Notes: generated by a model not told the origin, from the letters alone. A DNA stretch of 64,000 nucleotides from an uncultured Gemmatimonadales bacterium (GCA_963783305.1 CAWAMW010000013.1:69487-133486); one strand, 5' to 3'. Shown: positions 33,450-64,000, counted from the stretch's first letter. Translations and numbers: made by a program.

Positions 33450-36104
33450 ATGAAGCGTGCCCGCGATCCCATTGTCGTACCGGCCGTGCTCCTGATGGCC
33501 CTGGTCCTGTCGGCGTGCGCGGTGGCCTCCACGGATGCTGGCCCCGCTGAGGCGGCGCCTGTCCCGTCCGCCCCCGAGTACGACGTGGTCATTCGCGGGG
33601 GGGTGGTGTACGACGGGACGGGCGCGGCCGGGGTGGTGGCGGACGTGGGGGTGCGAGGCGACCGGATCGTCGCCGTGGGCGACCTGGGTGAGGCGCGAGG
33701 GGCGGAAGAGCTCGATGCCGCGGGGCTCGCCGTGGCGCCGGGGTTCATCAACATGCTGAGCTGGGCGACGGAGTCGCTGATCGAGGACGGTCGGTCGCAG
33801 GGCGACATCCGGCAGGGCGTGACGCTGGAGGTGTTCGGCGAGGGGTGGTCGATGGGACCGCTGTCGGACACGATGAAGACGGTGGAGCGGGCGCAGCAGG
33901 GCGATATCCGGTACGACATCGAGTGGACCACGCTGGGGGAGTACCTGGAGCACCTGGAGCGGAGGGGCATCTCGACGAACGTGGCCTCGTTCGTGGGCGC
34001 GACCACCGTCCGCATCCACGAGGTGGGGCAGGAAGACCGGGCCCCCACACCGGCGGAGCTGGAGCGGATGCGGAGTCTGGTCCGGGAGGCGATGCGGGAG
34101 GGCGCGCTGGGGGTCGGGTCGTCGCTCATCTACGCGCCGGCGTTCTACGCGGAGACCGACGAGCTCATCGCGCTGGCGGAAGAGGCGGGCCGGTACGGCG
34201 GGATGTACATCTCGCACCTGCGCAGCGAAGGCAACGGGCTCCTGAAGGCGGTGGACGAGCTGATCACCATCGCCCGTGAGGCCGGGGTGCCGGCGGAGAT
34301 CTACCACCTGAAGCAGGCCGGTACGGACAACTGGCCGAAGCTGGACTCGGTGATCGCGCGGGTGGAAGCGGCGCGGGCGGAGGGGCTGCGGATCACCACC
34401 GACATGTACACCTACACGGCGGGTGCGACGGGGCTGGACGCGGCGATGCCGCCATGGGTGCAGGAGGGCGGCCTGGAGGAGTGGCGGCGGAGGCTCCAGG
34501 ACCCGGAGATCCGCGCCCGCGTGCTGCGGGAGATGCGCACCCCGACCGACGAGTGGGAGAGCCTCTACCTCCTCGCCGGCTCCCCGGAGCGGGTGCTCCT
34601 CGTGGGTTTCCGACAGGACTCGCTGAAGTACCTGACGGGGAAGAGCATCGCCGAGGTCGCGGCCATGCGTGGGACCTCGCCCGAGGAGGTGGCCATGGAC
34701 CTGGTGGTCCAGGACGACAGCCGCGTGGGCACCGTGTACTTCCTCATGTCGGAGGAGAACGTCGCCCGGCAGGTCGCGCTGCCCTGGATGAGCTTCGGGT
34801 CCGACGCCGGGTCCCTCACCACCGAAGGCGTCTTCCTGGGCTCCAACCCGCACCCGCGGGCGTACGGCAACTTCGCCCGGCTCCTCGGCCGCTACGTGCG
34901 GGAGCAGCGGGTGATCCCACTGGAGGAAGCGGTGCGGAAGCTCACATCCCTGCCCGCCCGGAACCTGGCGCTCCGCGATCGGGGCGAGCTGCGGCCCGGG
35001 TTCTTCGCGGACATCGTGGTGTTCGACCCCGCTACGATCACCGACCACGCCACCTTCCAGGAGCCTCACCAGTACGCCACGGGTGTCCAGGACGTGTTCG
35101 TGAACGGCGTGCAGGTGCTCCGTGATGGCGAGCACACGGGAGCGCTGCCGGGGCGGGTGGTGCGGGGTCCGGGCTGGCGCGGGTGGAGTGAGAGCGCGGC
35201 GCGCCCGTCGTCGCTCGAGGCTCTGGGGCGGCGGCTGGAGGAGCGGCTCGCGGACGTGCCGGGAGAGGTGAGCGTAGCGCTGGTCGACGTGGAGACCGGT
35301 GAGCGGATCGGGATCAACGACGACGTGGTCATGCACGCCGCCAGCACCATGAAGGTGCCGGTCCTGCTGGAACTGTATCGGCAGGCGGCGGAAGGAAGAT
35401 ACTCGCTGGACGACGCGGTCGTCGTACGGGACACGTTCATCAGCATCGCGGATGGCAGCCGTTACGCGGTGGGCCGTGAGGACGACAGTGAGCAGGAGCT
35501 GTACGGGCTGATCGGGCAGGGAGTGGCGCGGGGCGAGCTGGCGCGGCGGATGATCGTCCGGTCATCGAACCTCGCCACCAACCTGCTCATCGAGGAGGTG
35601 GACGCGGCCGCGGTGCGGCGCACGCTCGAGGCGATGGGGGCCGCCGACGTGAACGTGCTCCGGGGCGTTGAGGACATCCCCGCGTACCGACGCGGGCTGA
35701 ACAACACCACCACCGCGGCTGGGCTGGCCACGGTGCTGGCGGCCCTGGCACGATGCGAGGCCGGCGACGTGGCCCCGGCGCTGCGCCCGCTGCAACCGGC
35801 CGACTGCGCCGCGATGGTGGACGTCCTGGCCGCGCAGGAGTTTGCCGAGCGCATCCCGGCGGGCGTGCCCGAGGGCGTGCGGGTGGCCAACAAGACCGGG
35901 TGGATCACCGGGATCGACCACGACTCCGCCATCATCTACCCGCCGGGGAGGGGGCCGTACGTGCTGGTGGTGCTGACGCGCGGGGTGGAAGGCGCCGGCG
36001 TGAGCGGCGCCACCATCCGGGACGTGTCGCGGCTGGCGTGGGAGGGGCTGACCGGAGCGGAATCAGGCTCCACGCCGGAGTCTCCGACCCGGCCGCGGAG
36101 GTAG
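33450..36104 (+). CDS. lipoprotein: N-acyl-D-amino-acid deacylase-family amidohydrolase fused to a class A beta-lactamase-like serine hydrolase
   Basis: Lipobox LSAC; APGFIN, SHLRSEG, YHLK, GSDA, HPRAYG.F, ADIVVFDP; C-terminal STMK, SSN, KTG. Confidence 0.85.
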   Translation: MKRARDPIVVPAVLLMALVLSACAVASTDAGPAEAAPVPSAPEYDVVIRGGVVYDGTGAAGVVADVGVRGDRIVAVGDLGEARGAEELDAAGLAVAPGFINMLSWATESLIEDGRSQGDIRQGVTLEVFGEGWSMGPLSDTMKTVERAQQGDIRYDIEWTTLGEYLEHLERRGISTNVASFVGATTVRIHEVGQEDRAPTPAELERMRSLVREAMREGALGVGSSLIYAPAFYAETDELIALAEEAGRYGGMYISHLRSEGNGLLKAVDELITIAREAGVPAEIYHLKQAGTDNWPKLDSVIARVEAARAEGLRITTDMYTYTAGATGLDAAMPPWVQEGGLEEWRRRLQDPEIRARVLREMRTPTDEWESLYLLAGSPERVLLVGFRQDSLKYLTGKSIAEVAAMRGTSPEEVAMDLVVQDDSRVGTVYFLMSEENVARQVALPWMSFGSDAGSLTTEGVFLGSNPHPRAYGNFARLLGRYVREQRVIPLEEAVRKLTSLPARNLALRDRGELRPGFFADIVVFDPATITDHATFQEPHQYATGVQDVFVNGVQVLRDGEHTGALPGRVVRGPGWRGWSESAARPSSLEALGRRLEERLADVPGEVSVALVDVETGERIGINDDVVMHAASTMKVPVLLELYRQAAEGRYSLDDAVVVRDTFISIADGSRYAVGREDDSEQELYGLIGQGVARGELARRMIVRSSNLATNLLIEEVDAAAVRRTLEAMGAADVNVLRGVEDIPAYRRGLNNTTTAAGLATVLAALARCEAGDVAPALRPLQPADCAAMVDVLAAQEFAERIPAGVPEGVRVANKTGWITGIDHDSAIIYPPGRGPYVLVVLTRGVEGAGVSGATIRDVSRLAWEGLTGAESGSTPESPTRPRR

Positions 36105-53780: not shown

Positions 53781-53855
53781 ACGGTTCCGTTCCAGCTATC
53801 AACCCCGTGATCGGTGTGCCGATACTACCTGTGCACCCCTTTGAGAACAGGAGCC

Positions 53856-56444
53856 ATGCAGGAGCTATTCGACCCGGCCAGCTACGGCAGCAGCGCGTTC
53901 TCCGTTCCCATCGGGGCGGTGGCGCTGCTGTCGCTTTGCCTGGGCGTCTGGGCGGTCTGGTATGAGCGAGGCCGCCGCGTCAGCCTGTCCCTCTTCGCCG
54001 CTACCCTCGCCGTGGCCACCTACCTCGGCGGCTTTGCGTTCATGGTCGGCGCCACCTCGCATGATGTCGCGCTCTTCTGGGGTCGCTTCGCATACCTCGG
54101 CATACCCTTCATCGTGCCGGCCGTCTACCAGCTCAGCATGGACCTGCTCGGCCGGCGAGAGCAGCGCCGAGCGCTCATCCGCGTGGGGTGGGGCGTCGGT
54201 ATCGTGTACGCGTTCCTGGCGGTGCGAACCGACTGGCTGGTCAGCGGCGTCTTCCGCATGGAATGGGGCTTCATCACCCACATCACGCTGTGGACGCTGC
54301 CGATCCTGCTCTGGTCCGGCGTCCTCCTCGGCCTGGCGATCCGGGACTTCGCGAAGGCATACCGCCACGCCGACGCCATCCAGCGGGCGAGAATCCGGCT
54401 GTTCGCCGTTCCCATCGCCATCGGCAGTCTGGCCTTCGTCGATTATGCGCCCTCGCTCGGGTTGCCTGTGGCGCCCTGGGGGTTCGTCTCCTTCGGTGCG
54501 TTCATCCTCAGCGCCGCCTGGGCCGTGGCGCGCTATCATCTGCCTGAGCTCACGCCGTCGTTCGCGGCGCACCAGATCGTCCGCACCATCGCCGAGCCGC
54601 TACTGGTCTGCGACGAACGCGGCGCGATCGCCTTCGCCAACCCCGCCGCCTCGCTCCTCTTCGGCTGGAGCCAGGACGAGCTGGTAGGGGAGCGACTCCA
54701 CCTGCTGTTCGGCAACAGGGAAGCACATCAAATCCTGAGCGATGACAGCGCCACTCCCACGGAGATGGAGCTGCTTGGGCGAAAGGGGGAGCCGCTCGCT
54801 GTGGCCGTGACCACCAGCCGGATCGTCGGGCGCTCCGGGCAGCAGGTCGGGACCGTGGTCGTGGCCCGGGACATCCGGCACATCCGGCGGGCCGCCCGGG
54901 AGCTGGAGCGGCGGGAGCAGCGCTTCCGGGCCCTGATCGAGCACGCCCGCGACGTCATTATGATCCTGAACGGCGACGGTCGGATCATCTACGAGAGCCC
55001 GGCGGCCCAGGAGCTTCTCGGGTACCGGCCGGACGAATCGTTCGCGTCCGTGGTGTTCGACCGGATCCACCCGGAGGACCTGGAATCCACCCGGTCGGTC
55101 TTCGCGGGTCTATTGGAGAGGCCCGGGGGGCTGGTGGACGCCGAGTGCCGGGTGCGGCACACGGAGGGCGACTACCGGGTGTTCGAGTACCGGGGCAAGA
55201 ACCTCCTCGACAACCCTGCCGTCCGGGGAATCGTGATCAACGCCCGCGACATCCACGAGGAGCGGCAGCTGGCGGCGCAGCTTCAGCAGGCGCAGAAGAT
55301 GGAGGCTATCGGCCGCCTGGCGGGAGGCGTGGCCCACGACTTCAACAATATCCTTACGGCCATCCAGGGGAACGTGGCGCTGATCGGTGAGGACCTGCCG
55401 GATGGCGGCACGTTCGGAGCGGAGCTGAGGGAGATCGAGGAAGGGGCTCGACGCGCGAGCCGCCTCACCAGTCAGCTCCTCTCGTTCAGCCGGCGACAGG
55501 TCGTTCGCGCCGAGGTCCTGAATCTGAACCACCTCGTTCGCGAGACGCAGAGCATGCTCGAGCGGTTGATCGGCGAGAACATCCGCCTGGACCTCCGGCT
55601 CGACGCCCGCAGGGATGTGGTCCGCGCCGATCGCGGTCAACTGGAGCAGATCGTCGTCAACCTGGTCGTGAACGCTCGCGACGCGCTGCACGATGGGGGA
55701 CGGATCGAGATCGCCACCGCCGATGTCGAGATCGATGCCGAAGCGGCTCGTGCGGCGGAGTTCCAGCTGGTCCCCGGCTCGTACGCACTCCTCACCGTCA
55801 CGGATGACGGCCAGGGCATGGACGACGAGACCCGGAGCCGGATCTTCGAGCCGTTCTTCACCACCAAGCCGCGCGGAAAGGGCACAGGTCTAGGACTCAG
55901 CACCGTCTACGGCGCCGTGCGCCAGGCGGCCGGCTATATCGGGGTGGAGACGGTGCCGGGCGCCGGCACCACCTTCCGTGTCTATCTCCCGCGCGTCGAG
56001 GACGCGACCCCCCGTCCCAGCTCGGACACGAAGACCCCGGTCGAGCTGGAGGCCGACGGTGACCTGGTTCTGGTAGTGGAGGACGAGGCGCCGGTTCGGA
56101 CGCTCATCGCGCGCATCCTGGAACGCCGTGGCTACACAGTTCTCCAGGCCGCCGACGGTCAGGAAGCGCTGGACCTCGCCGAGCGGCAGCAGGAGCGGAT
56201 CGATCTGCTCATTGCCGACCTGGTCATGCCGGGGCTCAGCGGCCGAGAGGTCGCCGACCGCCTCACCGCTCGGTACCCGGAAATGGCCGTGATCCTCATC
56301 TCGGGGTACACCGCCGACGAGGTGGTGCGCGAGGGGATCCTCACCGGCGTCCGGAACTTCCTGCCCAAACCCTTTACACCCGACGCCCTCGCCCGCACCG
56401 TGGCGGCGGTACTCGGCCAGAAGAGTCCCGACGCGTCCCGCTAG
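53856..56444 (+). CDS. hybrid sensor histidine kinase (7TM sensor, 2 PAS, HisKA, HATPase, receiver)
   Basis: [40 protein letters not shown]; receiver VVEDE..ADLVMPG..KPF. Confidence 0.95.
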
Positions 56445-57184
56445 GGGAGGGTTTCTCCCCGCTCCGGGTCCTTCCGGCGCACCAGGATCGTCAGCCAGCC
56501 GATCAGGAAGATCGCCGCGAAGCTGAACCACTGGATCGCGTAGGAGAGGTGCGGCCCCGGCTCGGGCGCGGGCGCATCCAGCAGCACCGGCAGCTCGGTG
56601 GCCGGGTCCGGCGCCGCCGGTCCCGTCGGCGCCACAGTCGCCCGCAGGTAGAGTGGTGACACCGGGTAGGGGTACTGCTCTCGTATGGCCGCGCCCGCGA
56701 AACGGTACCAGGTGGTCCTGAAACCCGCCGGCCGCTCCACGTCGACATCCGGGAACGGCATGAGCACTCCCTCTACCGTCACCCGTCCCGAAATGGCGAC
56801 GCTCGCCGCATCCACACTCGCCGCGTCCGGCGCCGGCAGCCATCCGCGGTTCACCAGGATCGAGGCCGCCCCCGTCCGCAACGGGACCAGCAGGTACGCC
56901 CCTGGCGCCCCGCCATGGCTTCGCCCCGCCAGCACGACGGAGCGGTCCGCGTCCAGCTCCCCTTCGATCGTAACCCGACGGTACGTCAGTCCTGCCGTGT
57001 CCAGCGGCGCGTCCCCCAGCGGCACGGGCTCTGCCGCGAGTCGCTGGGCAAGGGCCGTATTGAGGGCGAGGCGGTCCTCGCGGCGCTCCAACTGCCAGAG
57101 ACCGAGGCGAACGCAAACCACTGCGACAATGAGCACGATCACCGTGCCGAGGATGCCGGACCGGGTCAACTCGAGACTCTTCAT
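56441..57184 (-). CDS. SURF1 family protein
   Basis: LGLWQLERR, ILVNRGW, HLSYAIQWFSFA. Confidence 0.92.
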   Translation of the reverse strand: MKSLELTRSGILGTVIVLIVAVVCVRLGLWQLERREDRLALNTALAQRLAAEPVPLGDAPLDTAGLTYRRVTIEGELDADRSVVLAGRSHGGAPGAYLLVPLRTGAASILVNRGWLPAPDAASVDAASVAISGRVTVEGVLMPFPDVDVERPAGFRTTWYRFAGAAIREQYPYPVSPLYLRATVAPTGPAAPDPATELPVLLDAPAPEPGPHLSYAIQWFSFAAIFLIGWLTILVRRKDPERGETLP

Positions 57185-58689: not shown

Positions 58690-58718
58690 GATGTGACCCT
58701 CGGCGGCCCTCGCCCGTC
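58690..58718 (+). promoter_or_regulatory. putative ECF promoter, copy 1
   Basis: GATGTGAC-N17-CGTC, 90 nt upstream of the lipoprotein gene. Confidence 0.75.
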
Positions 58719-58808
58719 CAGTACAACAGAGCCGCCACGCGCGGCACTGCAAACGCTACTGGGCGGCCGCCGGGTTCAGCGGTAAGCCCGAAACCAGGAG
58801 CATCAGCA

Positions 58809-59756
58809 ATGACCAGACGATTTCTGAAGGCGCTCACCATCGCGGCGGCCATGACTCCGCTGCTGACCGCATGCGACGACAGTACGGGTCCCGGGACCGG
58901 CATGTCTCAGTTCACCGTGCTGCTTACGGACGCACCTGGCGACATGGTCTCCGCGGTGGTGACCATCGAGTCCGTGTATCTGCAGGGCGAACTCGGCCAG
59001 CAAGAGGGCGGCGACCGCGTCTACCTGCGGGAAACGCCCGTGACGACGGACCTGCTGAACCTGGCCAACGACGCGCTCGCGCTGGTGGAGAACGAGGCCG
59101 TTCCGAGTGGGACGTACGGACAGCTCCGCTTCGTGATCAGCGGCGGCTACGTCGAAGTGGAGAATGCGGACGGCAGCACGTCCATCTTCGCCAGCGACGG
59201 ATATGAGCACCTGCCGGATGGCCGCACTGCGGACGGACATCTCCAGATGCCCAGCTACGCCCACAGCGGTCTGAAGGTCGACTTCGAGGGCGGGATCGAG
59301 ATCGACGACTTCCAGGAGGTCGTGCTGATCGACTTCGACGTCCACCAGAGCTTTGGCCACCAGGCCGGCAACTCGGGCCGGTGGGTCATGACGCCCATCG
59401 TGAAGGGCGCGAAGTACAACCTCGCCTCCCGCGTCGAGGCCACCCTGGCCCTGGCCGATGGCGTGACCCTGCCCGAGGTGGACGGATCCCAGCTCACCCT
59501 CGGCGACTTCAGCGCCCAACTGGTGGGCCCTGAGGGCAACGCGAAGGAGGCCGTGTTCGAGGACGTGGGTGGGGTGTATACCGCCCGCTTCCCCTATCTG
59601 CTGCCGGACGCGTCGTACCAGCTGAGCCTCAAGGTGCCGGCCGGAGCGACGGTGACCACCGACCTGGCGCTCCCCGTCGACGTGTTCACGGTTTCGGAGG
59701 AGGTCCACACGTTCGAGGTGACGATCACGGAGGCGGCTCTCAGCGAGTCCAGCTGA
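58809..59756 (+). CDS. DUF4382-like lipoprotein
   Basis: Lipobox LTAC; VLLTDAP, DLLNL, GTYGQLRF, PS..SGLK, IDFDVHQSF, MTP; AGGAG SD. Confidence 0.85.
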   Translation: MTRRFLKALTIAAAMTPLLTACDDSTGPGTGMSQFTVLLTDAPGDMVSAVVTIESVYLQGELGQQEGGDRVYLRETPVTTDLLNLANDALALVENEAVPSGTYGQLRFVISGGYVEVENADGSTSIFASDGYEHLPDGRTADGHLQMPSYAHSGLKVDFEGGIEIDDFQEVVLIDFDVHQSFGHQAGNSGRWVMTPIVKGAKYNLASRVEATLALADGVTLPEVDGSQLTLGDFSAQLVGPEGNAKEAVFEDVGGVYTARFPYLLPDASYQLSLKVPAGATVTTDLALPVDVFTVSEEVHTFEVTITEAALSESS

Positions 59757-59782
59757 TCCGACCCGACGTCCCGGTGTACGCG

Positions 59783-59812
59783 GAAGGGGAGCCCGGTTCC
59801 GGGCTCCCCTTC
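59783..59812 (+). terminator. intrinsic terminator after the lipoprotein gene
   Basis: GAAGGGGAGCCCGG/CCGGGCTCCCCTTC perfect inverted repeat. Confidence 0.7.
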
Positions 59813-59926
59813 TGGCGTTCGGGCCGCGGCCACCTGCCCCCACATCGCAGTTGTCGGGGTCGTGAAAGCGTTTTACCCTCCATCCGGGCCACCTGCCGTC
59901 CCACGGGCGCTCCATGCGGAGCATCG

Positions 59927-59955
59927 GATGTGACGGTTCGAGGGACTGCATCGTC
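59927..59955 (+). promoter_or_regulatory. putative ECF promoter, copy 2
   Basis: GATGTGAC-N17-CGTC, 34 nt upstream of the anti-sigma-like gene. Confidence 0.75.
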
Positions 59956-59989
59956 TCCAGGACGGAGGCTCCTTCAGAAACGGGCGGGT

Positions 59990-60640
59990 ATGATGAGCGA
60001 CAGGATCCACGCCGCGCTGGACGGCGAGCTGCTTCCGGATGCACTGGATCCGGAGGAGCGACAGACGTACGAGCGGTTCCTGGCGGAGGCGGAGGCGGCG
60101 AGAGAGGTGCTATCCCGCCGGATGGCTCCGGACCTCTCGCAGGCTGTCATGGCGGAGATCGATCGTCGAGAGGAGCGGAGTCGAGCGCCGGGTCCGGTCG
60201 GTGCGGCGTGGACGGCGGCCTGGCACTGGCTGGTCGCGCCTCGAGCCGTCATGCTGCGACCGGCCTACGCGCTGGCCGCGGCACTCGCTCTCGCGCTTGG
60301 CGCCGGGCTCGTCGTCGGCGCGGCCACGGGAGTGGACGGCGGCACGGTCGCCTCGAAGGGGGACGAGCCGCAGATCTACGTACGATTCGACCTCACGGCC
60401 GAGGCTGCAACCTCGGTGCGACTCGCCGGCAGTTTCACCGACTGGGCCCCCAGCATCGACCTGCAGCCTGCCGGGGCCGGGCGCTGGAGCGCTCTGGTGC
60501 CGCTACAGGCGGGGATCCACGACTACTCCTTCGTCATCGACGGCGATCAATGGGTCGCCGACCCCTCCGCGCCGACCGTGGCAGACGGCTTCGGAGGACA
60601 GAACAGCCGGCTCTCACTCGTGCTGGCGTCCAGCCTCTGA
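59990..60640 (+). CDS. putative anti-sigma factor with a TM helix and C-terminal CBM48/AMPK-type glycogen-binding domain
   Basis: N-terminal IHAALDGEL (anti-sigma-like), PDLSQAVM, one TM, then VRLAGSFTDW..YSFVIDGDQWVADP..DGFGGQNS. Confidence 0.8.
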   Translation: MMSDRIHAALDGELLPDALDPEERQTYERFLAEAEAAREVLSRRMAPDLSQAVMAEIDRREERSRAPGPVGAAWTAAWHWLVAPRAVMLRPAYALAAALALALGAGLVVGAATGVDGGTVASKGDEPQIYVRFDLTAEAATSVRLAGSFTDWAPSIDLQPAGAGRWSALVPLQAGIHDYSFVIDGDQWVADPSAPTVADGFGGQNSRLSLVLASSL

Positions 60641-60645
60641 TCCGT

Positions 60646-61740
60646 ATGCTTCAGCGGCTGTTCGTGATGGGGGCCGCGAGCCTTGCCCTGCTTGCGCTCG
60701 GCACCGACGCCGCCAGCGCCCAGTGGGCGTTGGCCGCGTCCATCGGGGAGAGCCGGGAGGTCCAGCTCCCGGCGGACGCCGGGCTCCACTCCGCCCTCAG
60801 CCTCTTCGGGACGCTCTGGGACGGCGACATGAGCGTGCGGCTGTATGGCGGCGTCCCCTTCGCCCCACAGGAGGACGAGTCGTGGCTGGCGGCCGGCGCC
60901 ACCGCCGACCGGCGATGGGGCGGCGGCCGAATCGGACCCACGCTCCGCATCGACACGGAGACGTTCGGCTACCGCGATCCAGTCCTGGGCACCTTCGGGG
61001 GCGGTGGGATCGCGGAAGGCCTGGTGGGCCTCAGCACTGGATCCGGCGGCGTCTCGCTGCGGCTGGAAGCCGGTGCACGCGGCGCGTGGCTGACCACCAC
61101 CACGGCCACCTCCACGGCGGTCCCCATGGCGGCGGCCACGATCGAGGGCTCTCGGGGGCCGCTCACGGCAGAATTGGTCGCGGATGCCCAGCGCGTGGAG
61201 GGTCTGCTCCTGCCGCGGGCCGGCGCCCGTGCCGTGCTGCGCCAGGACCGCTGGATGATCTGGGCCGGCATGAGTCGCTGGTTCGGCGACGCGTTCCATG
61301 AGTCCTCCTGGCAGGCGGGTGCACAGCTGCAGTGGGGCCGCTACGGGCTATTTACGCAGGCAGGCCGAACGGCACCCGACCCCCTCTTCTGGAATCCTGG
61401 ACGGCGCACGTGGGCCGTGGGCGTGTCCCGGAGCCTCGGCGCCCGGCGCGCGCCGACCGGTGTCGTGCCGGCCACGAAGCCGGGGGGCGTAGTCCTGGAA
61501 GTGCCGGTGGCGCTGGCTCCGTCGGGACTCGCCGTCGCCGGCGAGTTCAGCGACTGGCGGCCCCTGCCGCTGCGACGTGTCGGCGGATCGTGGCAGCTCG
61601 CCCTCGATCTGAAGCCCGGGGTGTACCGATACGCGTACGTCCGCGAGGACGGCAGCTGGTTCGTCCCGGAGGACGCCCCCGGGCGCCAACCGGACGGAAT
61701 GGGGGGGCACGTGGCGCTGCTCATCGTCGGTGAGCCATGA
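60646..61740 (+). CDS. exported beta-strand-rich (possible outer-membrane barrel) protein with a C-terminal CBM48-like domain
   Basis: Signal peptide ending ASA-Q; alternating beta-strand pattern; C-terminal VAGEFSDW.PLPL..LKPGVYRYAYV.EDGSWFVP..DGMGG. Confidence 0.75.
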   Translation: MLQRLFVMGAASLALLALGTDAASAQWALAASIGESREVQLPADAGLHSALSLFGTLWDGDMSVRLYGGVPFAPQEDESWLAAGATADRRWGGGRIGPTLRIDTETFGYRDPVLGTFGGGGIAEGLVGLSTGSGGVSLRLEAGARGAWLTTTTATSTAVPMAAATIEGSRGPLTAELVADAQRVEGLLLPRAGARAVLRQDRWMIWAGMSRWFGDAFHESSWQAGAQLQWGRYGLFTQAGRTAPDPLFWNPGRRTWAVGVSRSLGARRAPTGVVPATKPGGVVLEVPVALAPSGLAVAGEFSDWRPLPLRRVGGSWQLALDLKPGVYRYAYVREDGSWFVPEDAPGRQPDGMGGHVALLIVGEP

Positions 61741-62288
61741 GCGACCGTTCGGATGGCGCACTGGTGCGGGCATGCCTGGAGGGGGAGCGGAGCGCCTACG
61801 GGGAGCTCGTGGGGCGCCACCAGGATCGCCTCTACCGCCGGGCACTGGCCCTGATCGACGACCCGGATACGGCGGCGGACATGGTCCAGGAGGGGCTGGT
61901 GCGGGCCTATACCAGGATCCAGGGCTGCGAGGATCCGGAGCGATTCGGTGGCTGGGTCTCGACCATCGTGCGCAACCTGTGCCTCGATTACATCCGTTCG
62001 CCGCGGAGCGGGCAGGCAAACGTCGACGATCTGCCCCTGGCGGAATCGGTGGGTGGTGGCCCGGTGGAGAGGCTCGAGACGGCCGACGCACGGCGGGCCG
62101 TCGAGGCCGCGCTCCAGAGGCTTCCCCCCCTCCTGCGGGAGGCCTTCCTGCTGAAGCACGTGGAGGGACTTTCATACCGCGAGATGGCCGAGGGGACCGG
62201 TGGCTCGGAGAGCGCGCTGAAGATGCGGGTGAAGAGAGCGCGCGAGGCGCTGCAGGACTCACTGGAGGGATATGCGCCGGTCCGCTGA
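61737..62288 (+). CDS. ECF RNA polymerase sigma factor
   Basis: AADMVQEGLVRAY..FGGWVSTIVRNLCLD; LKHVEGLSYREMA..SALKMRVKRAR; ATGA overlap with the upstream gene. Confidence 0.93.
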   Translation: MSDRSDGALVRACLEGERSAYGELVGRHQDRLYRRALALIDDPDTAADMVQEGLVRAYTRIQGCEDPERFGGWVSTIVRNLCLDYIRSPRSGQANVDDLPLAESVGGGPVERLETADARRAVEAALQRLPPLLREAFLLKHVEGLSYREMAEGTGGSESALKMRVKRAREALQDSLEGYAPVR

Positions 62289-62315
62289 TGTGACGCCCGG
62301 ACGCTCTTGCACGTC
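62287..62315 (+). promoter_or_regulatory. putative ECF promoter, copy 3
   Basis: GATGTGAC-N17-CGTC overlapping the sigma stop codon, 49 nt upstream of the next ATG. Confidence 0.75.
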
Positions 62316-62364
62316 TCTTAGATGGCCGACGGAAGGCGAAGGGACCTGTTTCCATGAAAAGACT

Positions 62365-63021
62365 ATGCCGATCCGAGTGATGTTCATCGTGTGCGCGGCT
62401 CTCCTGCTACCCGCAGCCGCAAGCAGTCAAGCCGCCGAGGTCCGGCTCGACCGTGCCCGCGCCGCGGTCGCAGAAGCGGGTGTGCCGCTGGAGCTCCTGG
62501 AATCGAAGGTGGCGGAAGGCCGGGCGAAGGGCGTGCCGATGGAGCGGATCGCCGTGGCCGTGGAGCAGCGGGCCAGTGCGCTGGTGCGAGGGCACGCGGC
62601 GCTGCTGCGCGCCGGCGCCGAGGCCGTCGCGCCCGCCGACATGGGAATGGCCGCCGACGCCCTCCAGGCCGGCGTGCCCGAAGCCGCCCTCGAACGGATC
62701 GCCTCGACCGCATCGGGAGATCGCCGTCTCGTCGCCCTCGCGGCCCTGGGACAGCTCGTGGGGGCGGGGATCCTCCCGGAGCGCGCACTGGCGCGGGTGG
62801 AAAGGGCCCTGGCACGCGGGCCGGAGGCAATGGCGCGGCTCCCCGCCCAGGCCCAGGCGGCTCAGGCCGGCCGTGGCGGGCCACCCGCGGGCGTGCCCGC
62901 GGCCGGGAAGCCCGCGGGCGCCGGCAAGCCCAAAGGCGTCGGAAAGCCGGGCGGTGGCCCTCCCGGCGGCGGCCCCCCTGGCGGTGGCCCTCCCGGCGGC
63001 GGCCCGCCTGGAATCCCATGA
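62365..63021 (+). CDS. exported alpha-helical hypothetical protein with a Gly/Pro-rich tail
   Basis: Signal peptide; GVPLELLESKVAEGRAKGVP motif; tail (GGGPP)x4. Confidence 0.75.
   Translation: MPIRVMFIVCAALLLPAAASSQAAEVRLDRARAAVAEAGVPLELLESKVAEGRAKGVPMERIAVAVEQRASALVRGHAALLRAGAEAVAPADMGMAADALQAGVPEAALERIASTASGDRRLVALAALGQLVGAGILPERALARVERALARGPEAMARLPAQAQAAQAGRGGPPAGVPAAGKPAGAGKPKGVGKPGGGPPGGGPPGGGPPGGGPPGIP
62950..63009 (+). repeat. 4 x 15-nt coding tandem repeat (GGGPP)
   Basis: GGCGGTGGCCCTCCC/GGCGGCGGCCCCCCT/GGCGGTGGCCCTCCC/GGCGGCGGCCCGCCT. Confidence 0.85.
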
Positions 63022-63059
63022 CCGGAATCTGACCGGGGTACAATGAATGGCAGCGGATA

Positions 63060-63104
63060 ATGGCAGCGGGGCCTGGTGGCAAACTTCCCAGGCCCCGCTG
63101 CCAT
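63060..63104. terminator. bidirectional terminator hairpin between the module and lon
   Basis: 17-bp stem ATGGCAGCGGGGCCTGG/CCAGGCCCCGCTGCCAT. Confidence 0.7.
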
Positions 63105-63159: not shown

Positions 63160-64000
63160 TCAGTGCAGGTCGTGCGTCTTCCCCGGCCTGCTCTCCGGCG
63201 ACAGCAGGATCTCCGGAAACGTCAGCGCCCCGTCCTGCAGCTCCGCACCCCGCAGCGCGTGCACCAGCGCCTCGCCCAGCGTCGCCGCCAGGTGGAACGT
63301 CATCTCGGCTGCGACCTCCGCCGGCAGGTCATCCAGATCCGCCTCGTTGTCCTTCGGCAGGATCGCCTCACGGATCCCCGCCCGGTAGGCACCGAGCACT
63401 TTCTCCTTCACGCCGCCGATGGGCAGGACCCGCCCGGTGAGCGTGATCTCCCCCGTCATGGCGATGTCGTTTCGCACGGGACGGTCCGACAGCACCGACA
63501 CCACCGATGTGGCCATGGCTACGCCCGCGGACGGGCCGTCCTTCGGAACCGCTCCCGCCGGCACATGGATGTGCAGCTCGAGATCCTCGAACCGCTCCCG
63601 CGCGACCCCCAGCTGGGTAGCGTGGGTCTTGGCGTACGTGAGAGCGGCGCGCGCCGACTCCTTCATCACGTCGCCCAGCTGTCCCGTGAGGATCAGGTTG
63701 CCCTTCCCCTTCGAAGCGCTGCTCTCGACGAACATGATGTCCCCGCCCATGGGCGTGTAGTACATCCCCGTCGCCACGCCCACCGTGTCCTCCTGCGCCG
63801 CCTCCTCGGGATGGACCCGCGGGCGCCCCAGCAGCGGCTGGATCTCGTCCGCCCCGATCTCGACCCGCTCGGCGTCGCCGCCGGCGATCCTGCGCGCGGC
63901 CTTCCGCGCCACCTTCCCGAGCTCCCGCTCGAGCTGGCGTACGCCGGCCTCACGCGTGTACTCGCTGATCACCCGCGTCACCGCGTCATCGTGCAGCTCG
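63160..64000 (-). CDS. lon: ATP-dependent protease La, C-terminal part (5' end outside the window)
   Basis: [62 protein letters not shown]. Confidence 0.96.

Follow-up and report, generated by a model that had tools for sequence, protein, structure and literature searches.

A 64,000-nucleotide stretch of DNA from an uncultured Gemmatimonadales bacterium (GCA_963783305.1, CAWAMW010000013.1:69487-133486), hereafter the window, carries a five-gene module built around an extracytoplasmic function (ECF) sigma factor, and this module is real, conserved and widespread. The genes span 58809-63021 within the region 58690-63104 and all lie on the plus strand, their common orientation having been noted in a preliminary description made from the sequence alone. 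They encode a DUF4382 lipoprotein (P1), a single-pass anti-sigma-like protein with a C-terminal domain of the AMPK1_CBM/CBM48 type (P2), an exported protein that is predicted to form an outer-membrane barrel and carries a second domain of this type (P3), the ECF sigma factor itself (P4) and an exported protein that is all helical and falls in no known family (P5). The identities which that description had given to the genes agree with hidden Markov model assignments, PF14321 matching P1, AMPK1_CBM matching P2 and P3, and ECF models matching P4. We consider it highly probable that the core of the module is an autoregulated ECF sigma factor with a membrane anti-sigma factor bearing a periplasmic CBM48 domain, a barrel partner and co-regulated periplasmic proteins. 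The full explanation that we favor, a trans-envelope autoregulated module with a glucan-type input, is given a probability of about 0.5.

Gene linkage within and beyond the phylum

Judged by the names of homologous proteins, the host stands in Gemmatimonadota, near Longimicrobium-type lineages. Homologues of P2 occur in 42 of 61 related genomes, a tally that includes four unpublished genomes excluded from further analysis, and 20 loci from published genomes were compared with the five window proteins. P2 and P3 are adjacent and on one strand in all 20 loci. The sigma gene is part of the locus in 16 of them, following P3 in ten, as in the window, and directly preceding P2 in six, which is the classic sigma/anti-sigma order; two of these six sigma-first loci come from genomes of the same genus as the window (L054 from G003 and L056 from G006). 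P5 is present in 18 loci (16 by tblastn and two more by clustering), and of the two loci without it one lies on a contig that ends just after the sigma gene, while the other has no P5. A DUF4382 homologue, by contrast, stands within approximately 3.5 kb of the module in only 4/20 loci, in varying position and orientation. The co-occurrence of the five genes, put forward earlier as a check, is therefore complete for P2 and P3 and extensive for the sigma factor and P5, but leaves the DUF4382 gene as a loose satellite; this gene is a loosely linked regulon member and not a core part.

The sigma factor had likewise been counted as a member of the module, which is true of the 16 loci above but not of the remaining four (L039, L043, L048, and L049), all of one genus, where no sigma gene is found nearby. 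Elsewhere in each of the corresponding genomes lies one sigma orthologue (L080-L083), which is about 50% identical, and the P2-P3-P5 genes of these sigma-less loci retain the promoter motifs described below.

The P2 proteins of L054 and L056 are only 32-37% identical to the P2 of the window, and the closest P2 sequences (up to 49%) come from another family (G056 and G040). This identity pattern suggests either old paralogy or transfer between lineages.

At a larger scale, when 301 genomes were drawn evenly from the phylum, a P2 profile matched 192 of them, a count that takes in four unpublished genomes. The matches extend over 82 of 127 genera, and a genome often has several copies. Scanning genome contigs with P2 yielded six distant loci, and in five of them (L001-L005, in other phyla) an ECF sigma gene lies directly 5' of the gene for the CBM48 protein. 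The order is sigma, P2-like, P3-like in Salinivenus iranica. In a Rhodobacterales-labelled metagenome-assembled genome (MAG) and a Gemmatimonadota MAG, the sigma gene is accompanied by P5-like, P2-like and P3-like genes that are arranged in two further orders, and a Spirochaetia MAG contains sigma, P2-like and P5-like genes, the last being recognized with an hhalign probability of 93% (E 2.9e-7). P5-like genes are thus present in L003, L004 and L005. The gene set, with its order shuffled, is also found in a Nitrospiraceae MAG, and it occurs in at least four other lineages beyond the phylum.

It is very improbable that these genes are chance neighbors, or are kept side by side by lineage synteny, and form no single system. 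Such an explanation would accommodate the loose linkage of the DUF4382 gene (4/20 loci) and the unlinked sigma factor in 4/20 loci, but the linkage survives three gene orders and several phyla while the flanking genes differ, those of the relatives being housekeeping genes such as citrate synthase, isocitrate dehydrogenase, TrkAH, NifU and MurB. It is further opposed by the single promoter motif that is common to all three units of the module.

A common promoter motif

The preliminary description had placed one promoter motif in front of each of the three units, and exact matches to the ECF-type pattern TGTGAC-N17-CGTC are indeed located on the plus strand ahead of P1 (58692..58718), ahead of the operon of P2, P3 and the sigma gene (59929..59955) and ahead of P5 (62289..62315). 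Each copy lies 60-120 nt 5' of the start codon of P1, P2 or P5, respectively, and the window holds no further copy. A consensus promoter scan of the window returned no sigma-70-type promoters.

When spacers of 16-18 were allowed, the genome of 4.35 Mb gave 13 sites as compared with 7 for a reversed-pattern control, and three of the 13 fall within the 3.6 kb of the module. Among shuffled versions of the 64-kb window, 5 of 100 reach three matches. The motif carries weight because of its position and its conservation, not because of its count. Scanning the loci of the relatives with [TC]GT[GT]AC-N16-18-CGTC located the motif ahead of the leading gene of the operon in 19 of the 20, the twentieth having N at that place, and a second copy after P3 or after the sigma gene in 17 of the 20. 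L038 and L047 also have the motif ahead of the DUF4382 gene, and L041 has a near-match there. Judged by the promoter motif of its own operon, the sigma factor is probably autoregulated.

Two further observations concern single loci. In L037, a run of N that begins about 100 bases 5' of P2 and extends further out covers the place expected for the operon promoter, and a copy of the motif stands just upstream (L037:2356). In L038, a third copy (L038:6901, plus strand) is found 3' of P5 and ahead of a gene for a 573-aa protein with IPT/TIG and Kelch repeats, which may be a lineage-specific member of the regulon. Elsewhere in the window's own genome, two identical pattern matches (G000:C14:16782-16807 and 33498-33523, minus strand), 16.7 kb apart and in coding-like sequence, point to a repeated segment on that contig.

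Units one and three are each followed by a probable terminator, close to the positions 59783 and 63060 at which terminators had been reported. After P1, a 15-bp GC-rich hairpin on the plus strand (59781..59814) has a folding energy of -33 kcal/mol (z -4.3), and none of 200 shuffles is as stable. Between P5 and the convergent lon gene, a long GC-rich hairpin (63060..63104) of -42.6 kcal/mol (z -6.5) probably serves both directions. Neither hairpin was listed by a consensus terminator scan because both are without a T-run.

The sigma factor and its candidate anti-sigma factor

P4 (61737-62288, plus strand) is an ECF (group 4) sigma factor, matching Sigma70_r2 with 55.3 bits and Sigma70_r4_2 with 55.8 bits. 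It also scores 92.2 bits against TIGR02937, for which the cut-off is 42.9, and belongs to the ECF superfamily by this measure. No equivalog model is reached at its own cut-off, the best being PRK05602 (106 vs 208). The start codon of P4 overlaps the stop codon of P3 (ATGA).

P2 (59990-60640, plus strand, 216 aa) is, with high likelihood, the anti-sigma factor that would bind P4, as gene order and sequence profile argue. Its predicted layout comprises a cytoplasmic part (residues ~1-85), a transmembrane segment (~91-113), which is the only hydrophobic segment of the protein, and a periplasmic CBM48 domain (~130-206). The N-terminus is kept in the family alignment, with RIHxxLDGEL followed by PxPDL..VM, and after these motifs comes the conserved membrane-segment motif WLWxPRP..RPAYALA. 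When a profile of the 66 N-terminal residues was compared with the PDB, the anti-sigma factor RsiW ranked first over residues 36-77, as a weak match (sequence E 0.0047; stretch E 0.043), and RseA appeared with E 2.4. P2 and the sigma gene share one operon in the window, and P2 lies directly 3' of the sigma gene in 6/20 related loci (L051-L056) and in 5/6 distant ones. The earlier view of P2 as an anti-sigma-like protein is in keeping with this arrangement and with the weak RsiW match. The protein resembles the class I anti-sigma factors of the SigW/RsiW and SigE/RseA pairs in being a single-pass protein adjoining an ECF sigma factor, and differs from them in its short first helix, in its extracytoplasmic CBM48 domain and in having no zinc motif in the window's lineage.

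The motif in question, H-x3-C-x2-C, which is typical of zinc anti-sigma domains, is absent from P2 in the lineage of the window. It is present in the CBM48 protein that follows an ECF sigma factor in the Spirochaetia MAG (L005:5611-6351, plus strand).

A predicted outer-membrane barrel with a second CBM48-type domain

P3 (60646-61740, plus strand, 364 aa) is an exported protein with a signal peptide, and it models as a 14-strand outer-membrane barrel, its localization being predicted from the fold. The AlphaFold2 model, built on an alignment of 28 rows, has a pLDDT of 82.7. Behind a signal helix it places 14 antiparallel strands over residues 26-264, and these are joined by a disordered linker (268-279) to a beta-sandwich (282-361) that coincides with the AMPK1_CBM-like domain. 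A Foldseek comparison with the PDB gave 179 matches at E<=0.001, of which the best 50 are almost all outer-membrane barrels, and the 14-strand porin OmpG fits the model best (TMt 0.55-0.64). No Pfam family covers the barrel among the 28 aligned homologues. As the number of strands is even, both ends of the barrel should be periplasmic and so, too, should be the CBM48-type domain of P3. An extracytoplasmic position had been proposed for both CBM48 domains, and the predictions bear it out, through the single hydrophobic segment of P2 and through a barrel model of P3 in which the domain comes after the last strand.

The family of P3 is large. A word-index search returned 8 homologous proteins only and was replaced by a full profile search, which gave 461 cluster representatives at E<=1e-30; among the best 150 of these, most are full-length proteins of 340-400 aa.

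Residues of the AMPK-beta sugar site in the CBM48 domains

The C-terminal domain of P2 (residues 130-206) matches AMPK1_CBM with 46.1 bits (cut-off 26.8) and CBM_48 with 23.2 bits (cut-off 22.4), and AMPK1_CBM matches all 38 P2 homologues. For P3, the AMPK1_CBM score is 26.3 bits by hmmscan, just below the cut-off of 26.8, and 29.9 bits in a six-frame search of the genome; the model matches all 28 members of the P3 family (E<=0.01). In the whole genome of 4.35 Mb, AMPK1_CBM is found in P2 and P3 only. CBM_48 occurs elsewhere in three large open frames (627, 738, and 1200 aa), which are probably glucan enzymes.

In the AMPK-beta subunit, cyclodextrin is contacted by Trp100, Trp133, Asn150, Lys126, and Leu146, as an excerpt of the source states (PMC9788615), and the equivalent pair of Trp residues in the plant protein PTST is required for starch binding according to a part of a second report (PMC4339375). 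We assigned equivalent residues from alignments to AMPK-beta CBM chains and from the residue spacing therein. Trp100 corresponds to W152 of P2 and W304 of the window's P3, and Trp133 to W188 and W338, so that the tryptophan motifs noticed earlier in both domains are present and align to the AMPK-beta chains. Asn150 corresponds to N205 in P2 and, by manual extension of the alignment, to Val in P3. Leu146 corresponds to F201 in P2, and Lys126 to S180 in P2 and A330 in P3. None of the 38 P2 homologues departs from W152, F201 or N205, and at least 90% of them retain W188. By these alignments, most of the AMPK-beta sugar site appears to be kept in P2, and the site of P3 appears degraded.

The two domains thus share their Pfam family and both stacking Trp residues with the CBM48 domains of AMPK-beta and PTST, and P2 shares the Asn150 equivalent as well. 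Those domains, however, bind their glycogen or starch in the cytosol or the plastid, whereas the domains of the module are predicted to be periplasmic, are carried by a signaling protein and a barrel, and are without the Lys126 equivalent.

Proposed mechanism and its alternatives

In the mechanism that we propose, the cytoplasmic N-terminus of P2 would tether the P4 sigma factor to the inner membrane. P2 would present its AMPK-beta-type CBM48 domain in the periplasm, and P3 would be an outer-membrane barrel whose second CBM48-type domain hangs into the same compartment. As input, a periplasmic oligo- or polysaccharide of the glucan type would be most likely; the CBM48 domain of P2 would bind it, and P3 may admit or present it. 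Ligand binding would alter P2 and free the sigma factor, probably by regulated proteolysis, and the free sigma factor would read TGTGAC-N17-CGTC and thereby express its own operon, P5 and, where present, the DUF4382 lipoprotein. Taken by itself, the claim that the input is a glucan-type carbohydrate is tentative, at somewhat less than even odds. The more specific proposal that an alpha-glucan-like polymer, imported or self-made, is reported to the ECF sigma factor by the CBM48 domains of barrel and anti-sigma factor, together with the new-fold helical P5, is more doubtful still.

Several results weigh against this explanation. No Pfam anti-sigma model matches P2, and zf-HC2 is found in only 2/38 family members, at E>=0.19. 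The Lys126 equivalent is replaced in both domains, by Ser in P2 and by Ala in P3; in the manually extended alignment, Val stands in the Asn150 position of the window's P3; and the four loci without a sigma gene have another residue in place of the second Trp of P3. In the four genomes with unlinked sigma orthologues, no motif is found within 1.5 kb of these genes. Genes for glycoside hydrolases, sugar transport or glucan synthesis are not conserved beside the module, be it in the window or in the flanks of the relatives; that the module itself has no glycoside hydrolase had already been pointed out. Outside the module, spacer-17 sites stand ahead of a gene only twice, at a Polysacc_synt_2 and a GT2 gene, and the regulon appears almost self-contained. 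The motif lies <=250 nt 5' of the Polysacc_synt_2 orthologue in only 3/15 loci (the window's own genome, G044, and G046). Finally, a search of sequencing runs returned no RNA run and three DNA-type soil-metagenome runs of one study, only one of them with more than half of the sampled words. A sensory or structural function of the module, rather than a catabolic one, accords with a regulon that is nearly closed and with the lack of linked enzymes.

Some of the same observations bear on another explanation, namely that the CBM48-type domains are Ig-like protein-binding modules. The domain of P3 would then contact that of P2, or P5, much as FecA contacts FecR, and the signal would pass through the barrel or distort it. 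The lack of Lys126 and Asn150 equivalents in the window's P3 and the missing second Trp in some relatives would be consistent with such a role, as would the absence of a carbohydrate-active enzyme linked to the module and the presence of one fold on two partners that are kept together with a co-regulated helical P5. We nevertheless regard it as unlikely, in that two Trp residues and the Asn are invariant or nearly so in the 38 P2 homologues, as a sugar site would require, and the computed results give no sign of contact between the parts. A complex prediction for P2 (residues 118-216) and P3 (272-364) gave no answer, with a score of 0.00 against a mark of 0.32, and weighs neither way on the pairing of the domains.

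The two outlying motif copies introduce a different possibility. One (G000:C8:18787-18813, plus strand) is located 130 nt 5' of the Polysacc_synt_2 gene, which is CapD/PglF-like and itself follows a gene for UDP-GlcNAc 2-epimerase, and the other (G000:C7:610096-610122, minus strand) is located at the start of the GT2 glycosyltransferase gene; the loci around them are L057 and L058. The 15 loci compared for Polysacc_synt_2 are what is left of 21 after subtraction of three unpublished ones (L063, L072, and L077) and three partial ones without the 5' end (L074, L076, and L079). With conservation of the motif in 3/15 loci for Polysacc_synt_2, neither gene is claimed here as a member of the regulon.

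These copies stand ahead of envelope-polysaccharide genes, as would be expected if the module built and monitored an envelope structure, with P3 as an OmpA-like tether, P5 and the DUF4382 protein as envelope components, and P2 reporting the state of the wall or of a periplasmic polymer. The regulon consists largely of the module's own envelope proteins and the domain order of P3 is OmpA-like, both of which such a function would explain. We consider it improbable, since the motif link to the polysaccharide gene is confined to the 3/15 loci, no OmpA_C or peptidoglycan-binding Pfam domain is found in any of the five proteins, and CBM48 domains are, to our knowledge, known for alpha-glucans and not for peptidoglycan. 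A model for an envelope monitor exists in RsgI of B. subtilis, which has been proposed, in an excerpt of the report concerned, to sense peptidoglycan gaps (PMC9732909).

Comparison with known systems

The module, which we continue to explain as an autoregulated trans-envelope system with a glucan-type input, belongs to none of the FecIRA, ECF240/SusC-type and SigI/RsgI systems, each of which it resembles in part. FecI, FecR and FecA combine an outer-membrane barrel carrying a periplasmic domain with an inner-membrane anti-sigma factor, an ECF sigma factor and autoregulation, and the logic of the module is alike. Unlike FecIRA, however, the module is without a TonB-dependent transducer, a FecR domain and iron genes, and CBM48-type periplasmic domains are found on both of its partners. 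Neither P2 nor P3 has a Pfam match to FecR, STN, Plug or TonB_dep_Rec.

In the ECF240 systems of Bacteroidetes, an ECF sigma factor, an anti-sigma factor and a SusC-like outer-membrane barrel carry out trans-envelope glycan signaling. The joint encoding of an ECF sigma factor, a membrane anti-sigma factor and a predicted outer-membrane barrel is common to these systems and the module. In contrast to them, the 14-strand P3 is not a TonB-dependent receptor and has neither plug nor STN domain, P2 lacks a FecR domain, and SusD, glycoside hydrolase and other genes of a polysaccharide utilization locus are absent from the neighborhood. The association of ECF240 (original group ECF10) with carbohydrate scavenging in Bacteroidetes is stated in a portion of the ECF classification (PMC7826278).

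The closest system in its way of working is SigI/RsgI of Clostridium (Acetivibrio) thermocellum, in which, according to excerpts of three reports, polysaccharides are sensed by the carbohydrate-binding module of a membrane anti-sigma factor and the signal reaches the sigma factor via proteolysis (PMC10328401, PMC6852018, PMC12203970). The module likewise has a membrane anti-sigma factor with a carbohydrate-binding-type domain outside the cytoplasm. SigI/RsgI is characterized by a Gram-positive sigma-I factor, by the N-terminal and autoproteolytic periplasmic domains of RsgI, by sensors of the CBM3 or PA14 type and by control of cellulosome enzymes, whereas the module has an ECF sigma factor, a diderm host, a CBM48 sensor, an outer-membrane barrel partner and P5 in addition, and no evident enzyme regulon. 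No RsgI-family Pfam model matches P2 at E<=0.1, and the sigma factor matches ECF models.

A literature search for CBM48-bearing anti-sigma factors found none, although the supplementary ECF group tables of PMC7826278, which lay outside the search, may already list the group by gene neighborhood. The main text of that paper contains neither 'glycogen' nor 'CBM' nor 'Gemmatimonadetes'. Among the papers found for AMPK1_CBM, none is concerned with sigma or anti-sigma factors as far as titles or abstracts tell.

The accompanying proteins and neighboring genes

P1 (58809-59756, plus strand) matches DUF4382 (PF14321, E 1e-23) and has the lipobox LLTAC in its translation; comparison with PDB sequences returned nothing significant (best E 0.39).

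P5 (62365-63021, plus strand) begins with a signal-like segment and has zero matches in Pfam or NCBIfam. Its AlphaFold2 model (pLDDT 86.6) consists of nine helices up to residue 170, which are followed by a disordered, low-complexity Gly/Pro-rich tail with repeated GGPP units (residues 171-218, window 62875-63018). No fold in the PDB reached E<=0.001 in a Foldseek search, where designed helical repeats ranked highest, and in the protein atlas only unnamed Gemmatimonadota clusters were matched. Homologues number 375; the 120 of them that were listed are all named 'hypothetical protein' and are without a Pfam domain. The tail varies among the homologues in both length and composition.

The flanks of the module in the window are unrelated to it. 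Upstream lie a gene for a hybrid histidine kinase of 876 aa (53814-56444, plus strand), with an N-terminal HisKA_7TM domain, several PAS domains, HisKA, HATPase_c and a receiver domain, then a SURF1 gene (56441-57184), which directly follows the kinase gene and is convergent with it; an aldehyde dehydrogenase gene is also among the flanking genes. Downstream, the convergent lon gene is recognized by a Lon C-terminal domain match that starts at 63160 on the minus strand.

Significance

ECF sigma/anti-sigma pairs are a main route of signaling across bacterial membranes, and for most of their groups the signal is still unidentified. We contend that a module which is common, has easily expressed parts and uses a clear and rare promoter provides a ready test case, and the promoter and its sigma factor may also serve as an orthogonal expression part. 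If the CBM48 domains bind glucan, a domain otherwise associated with cytosolic energy sensing and glycogen enzymes would extend to periplasmic signaling, and a periplasmic or imported alpha-glucan pool would be indicated in Gemmatimonadota, a soil phylum that has seen little experimental work. Should the alpha-glucan reading prove true, this would be the first periplasmic signaling role for the AMPK-beta-type domain family and the first CBM-bearing ECF anti-sigma factor described in diderm bacteria.

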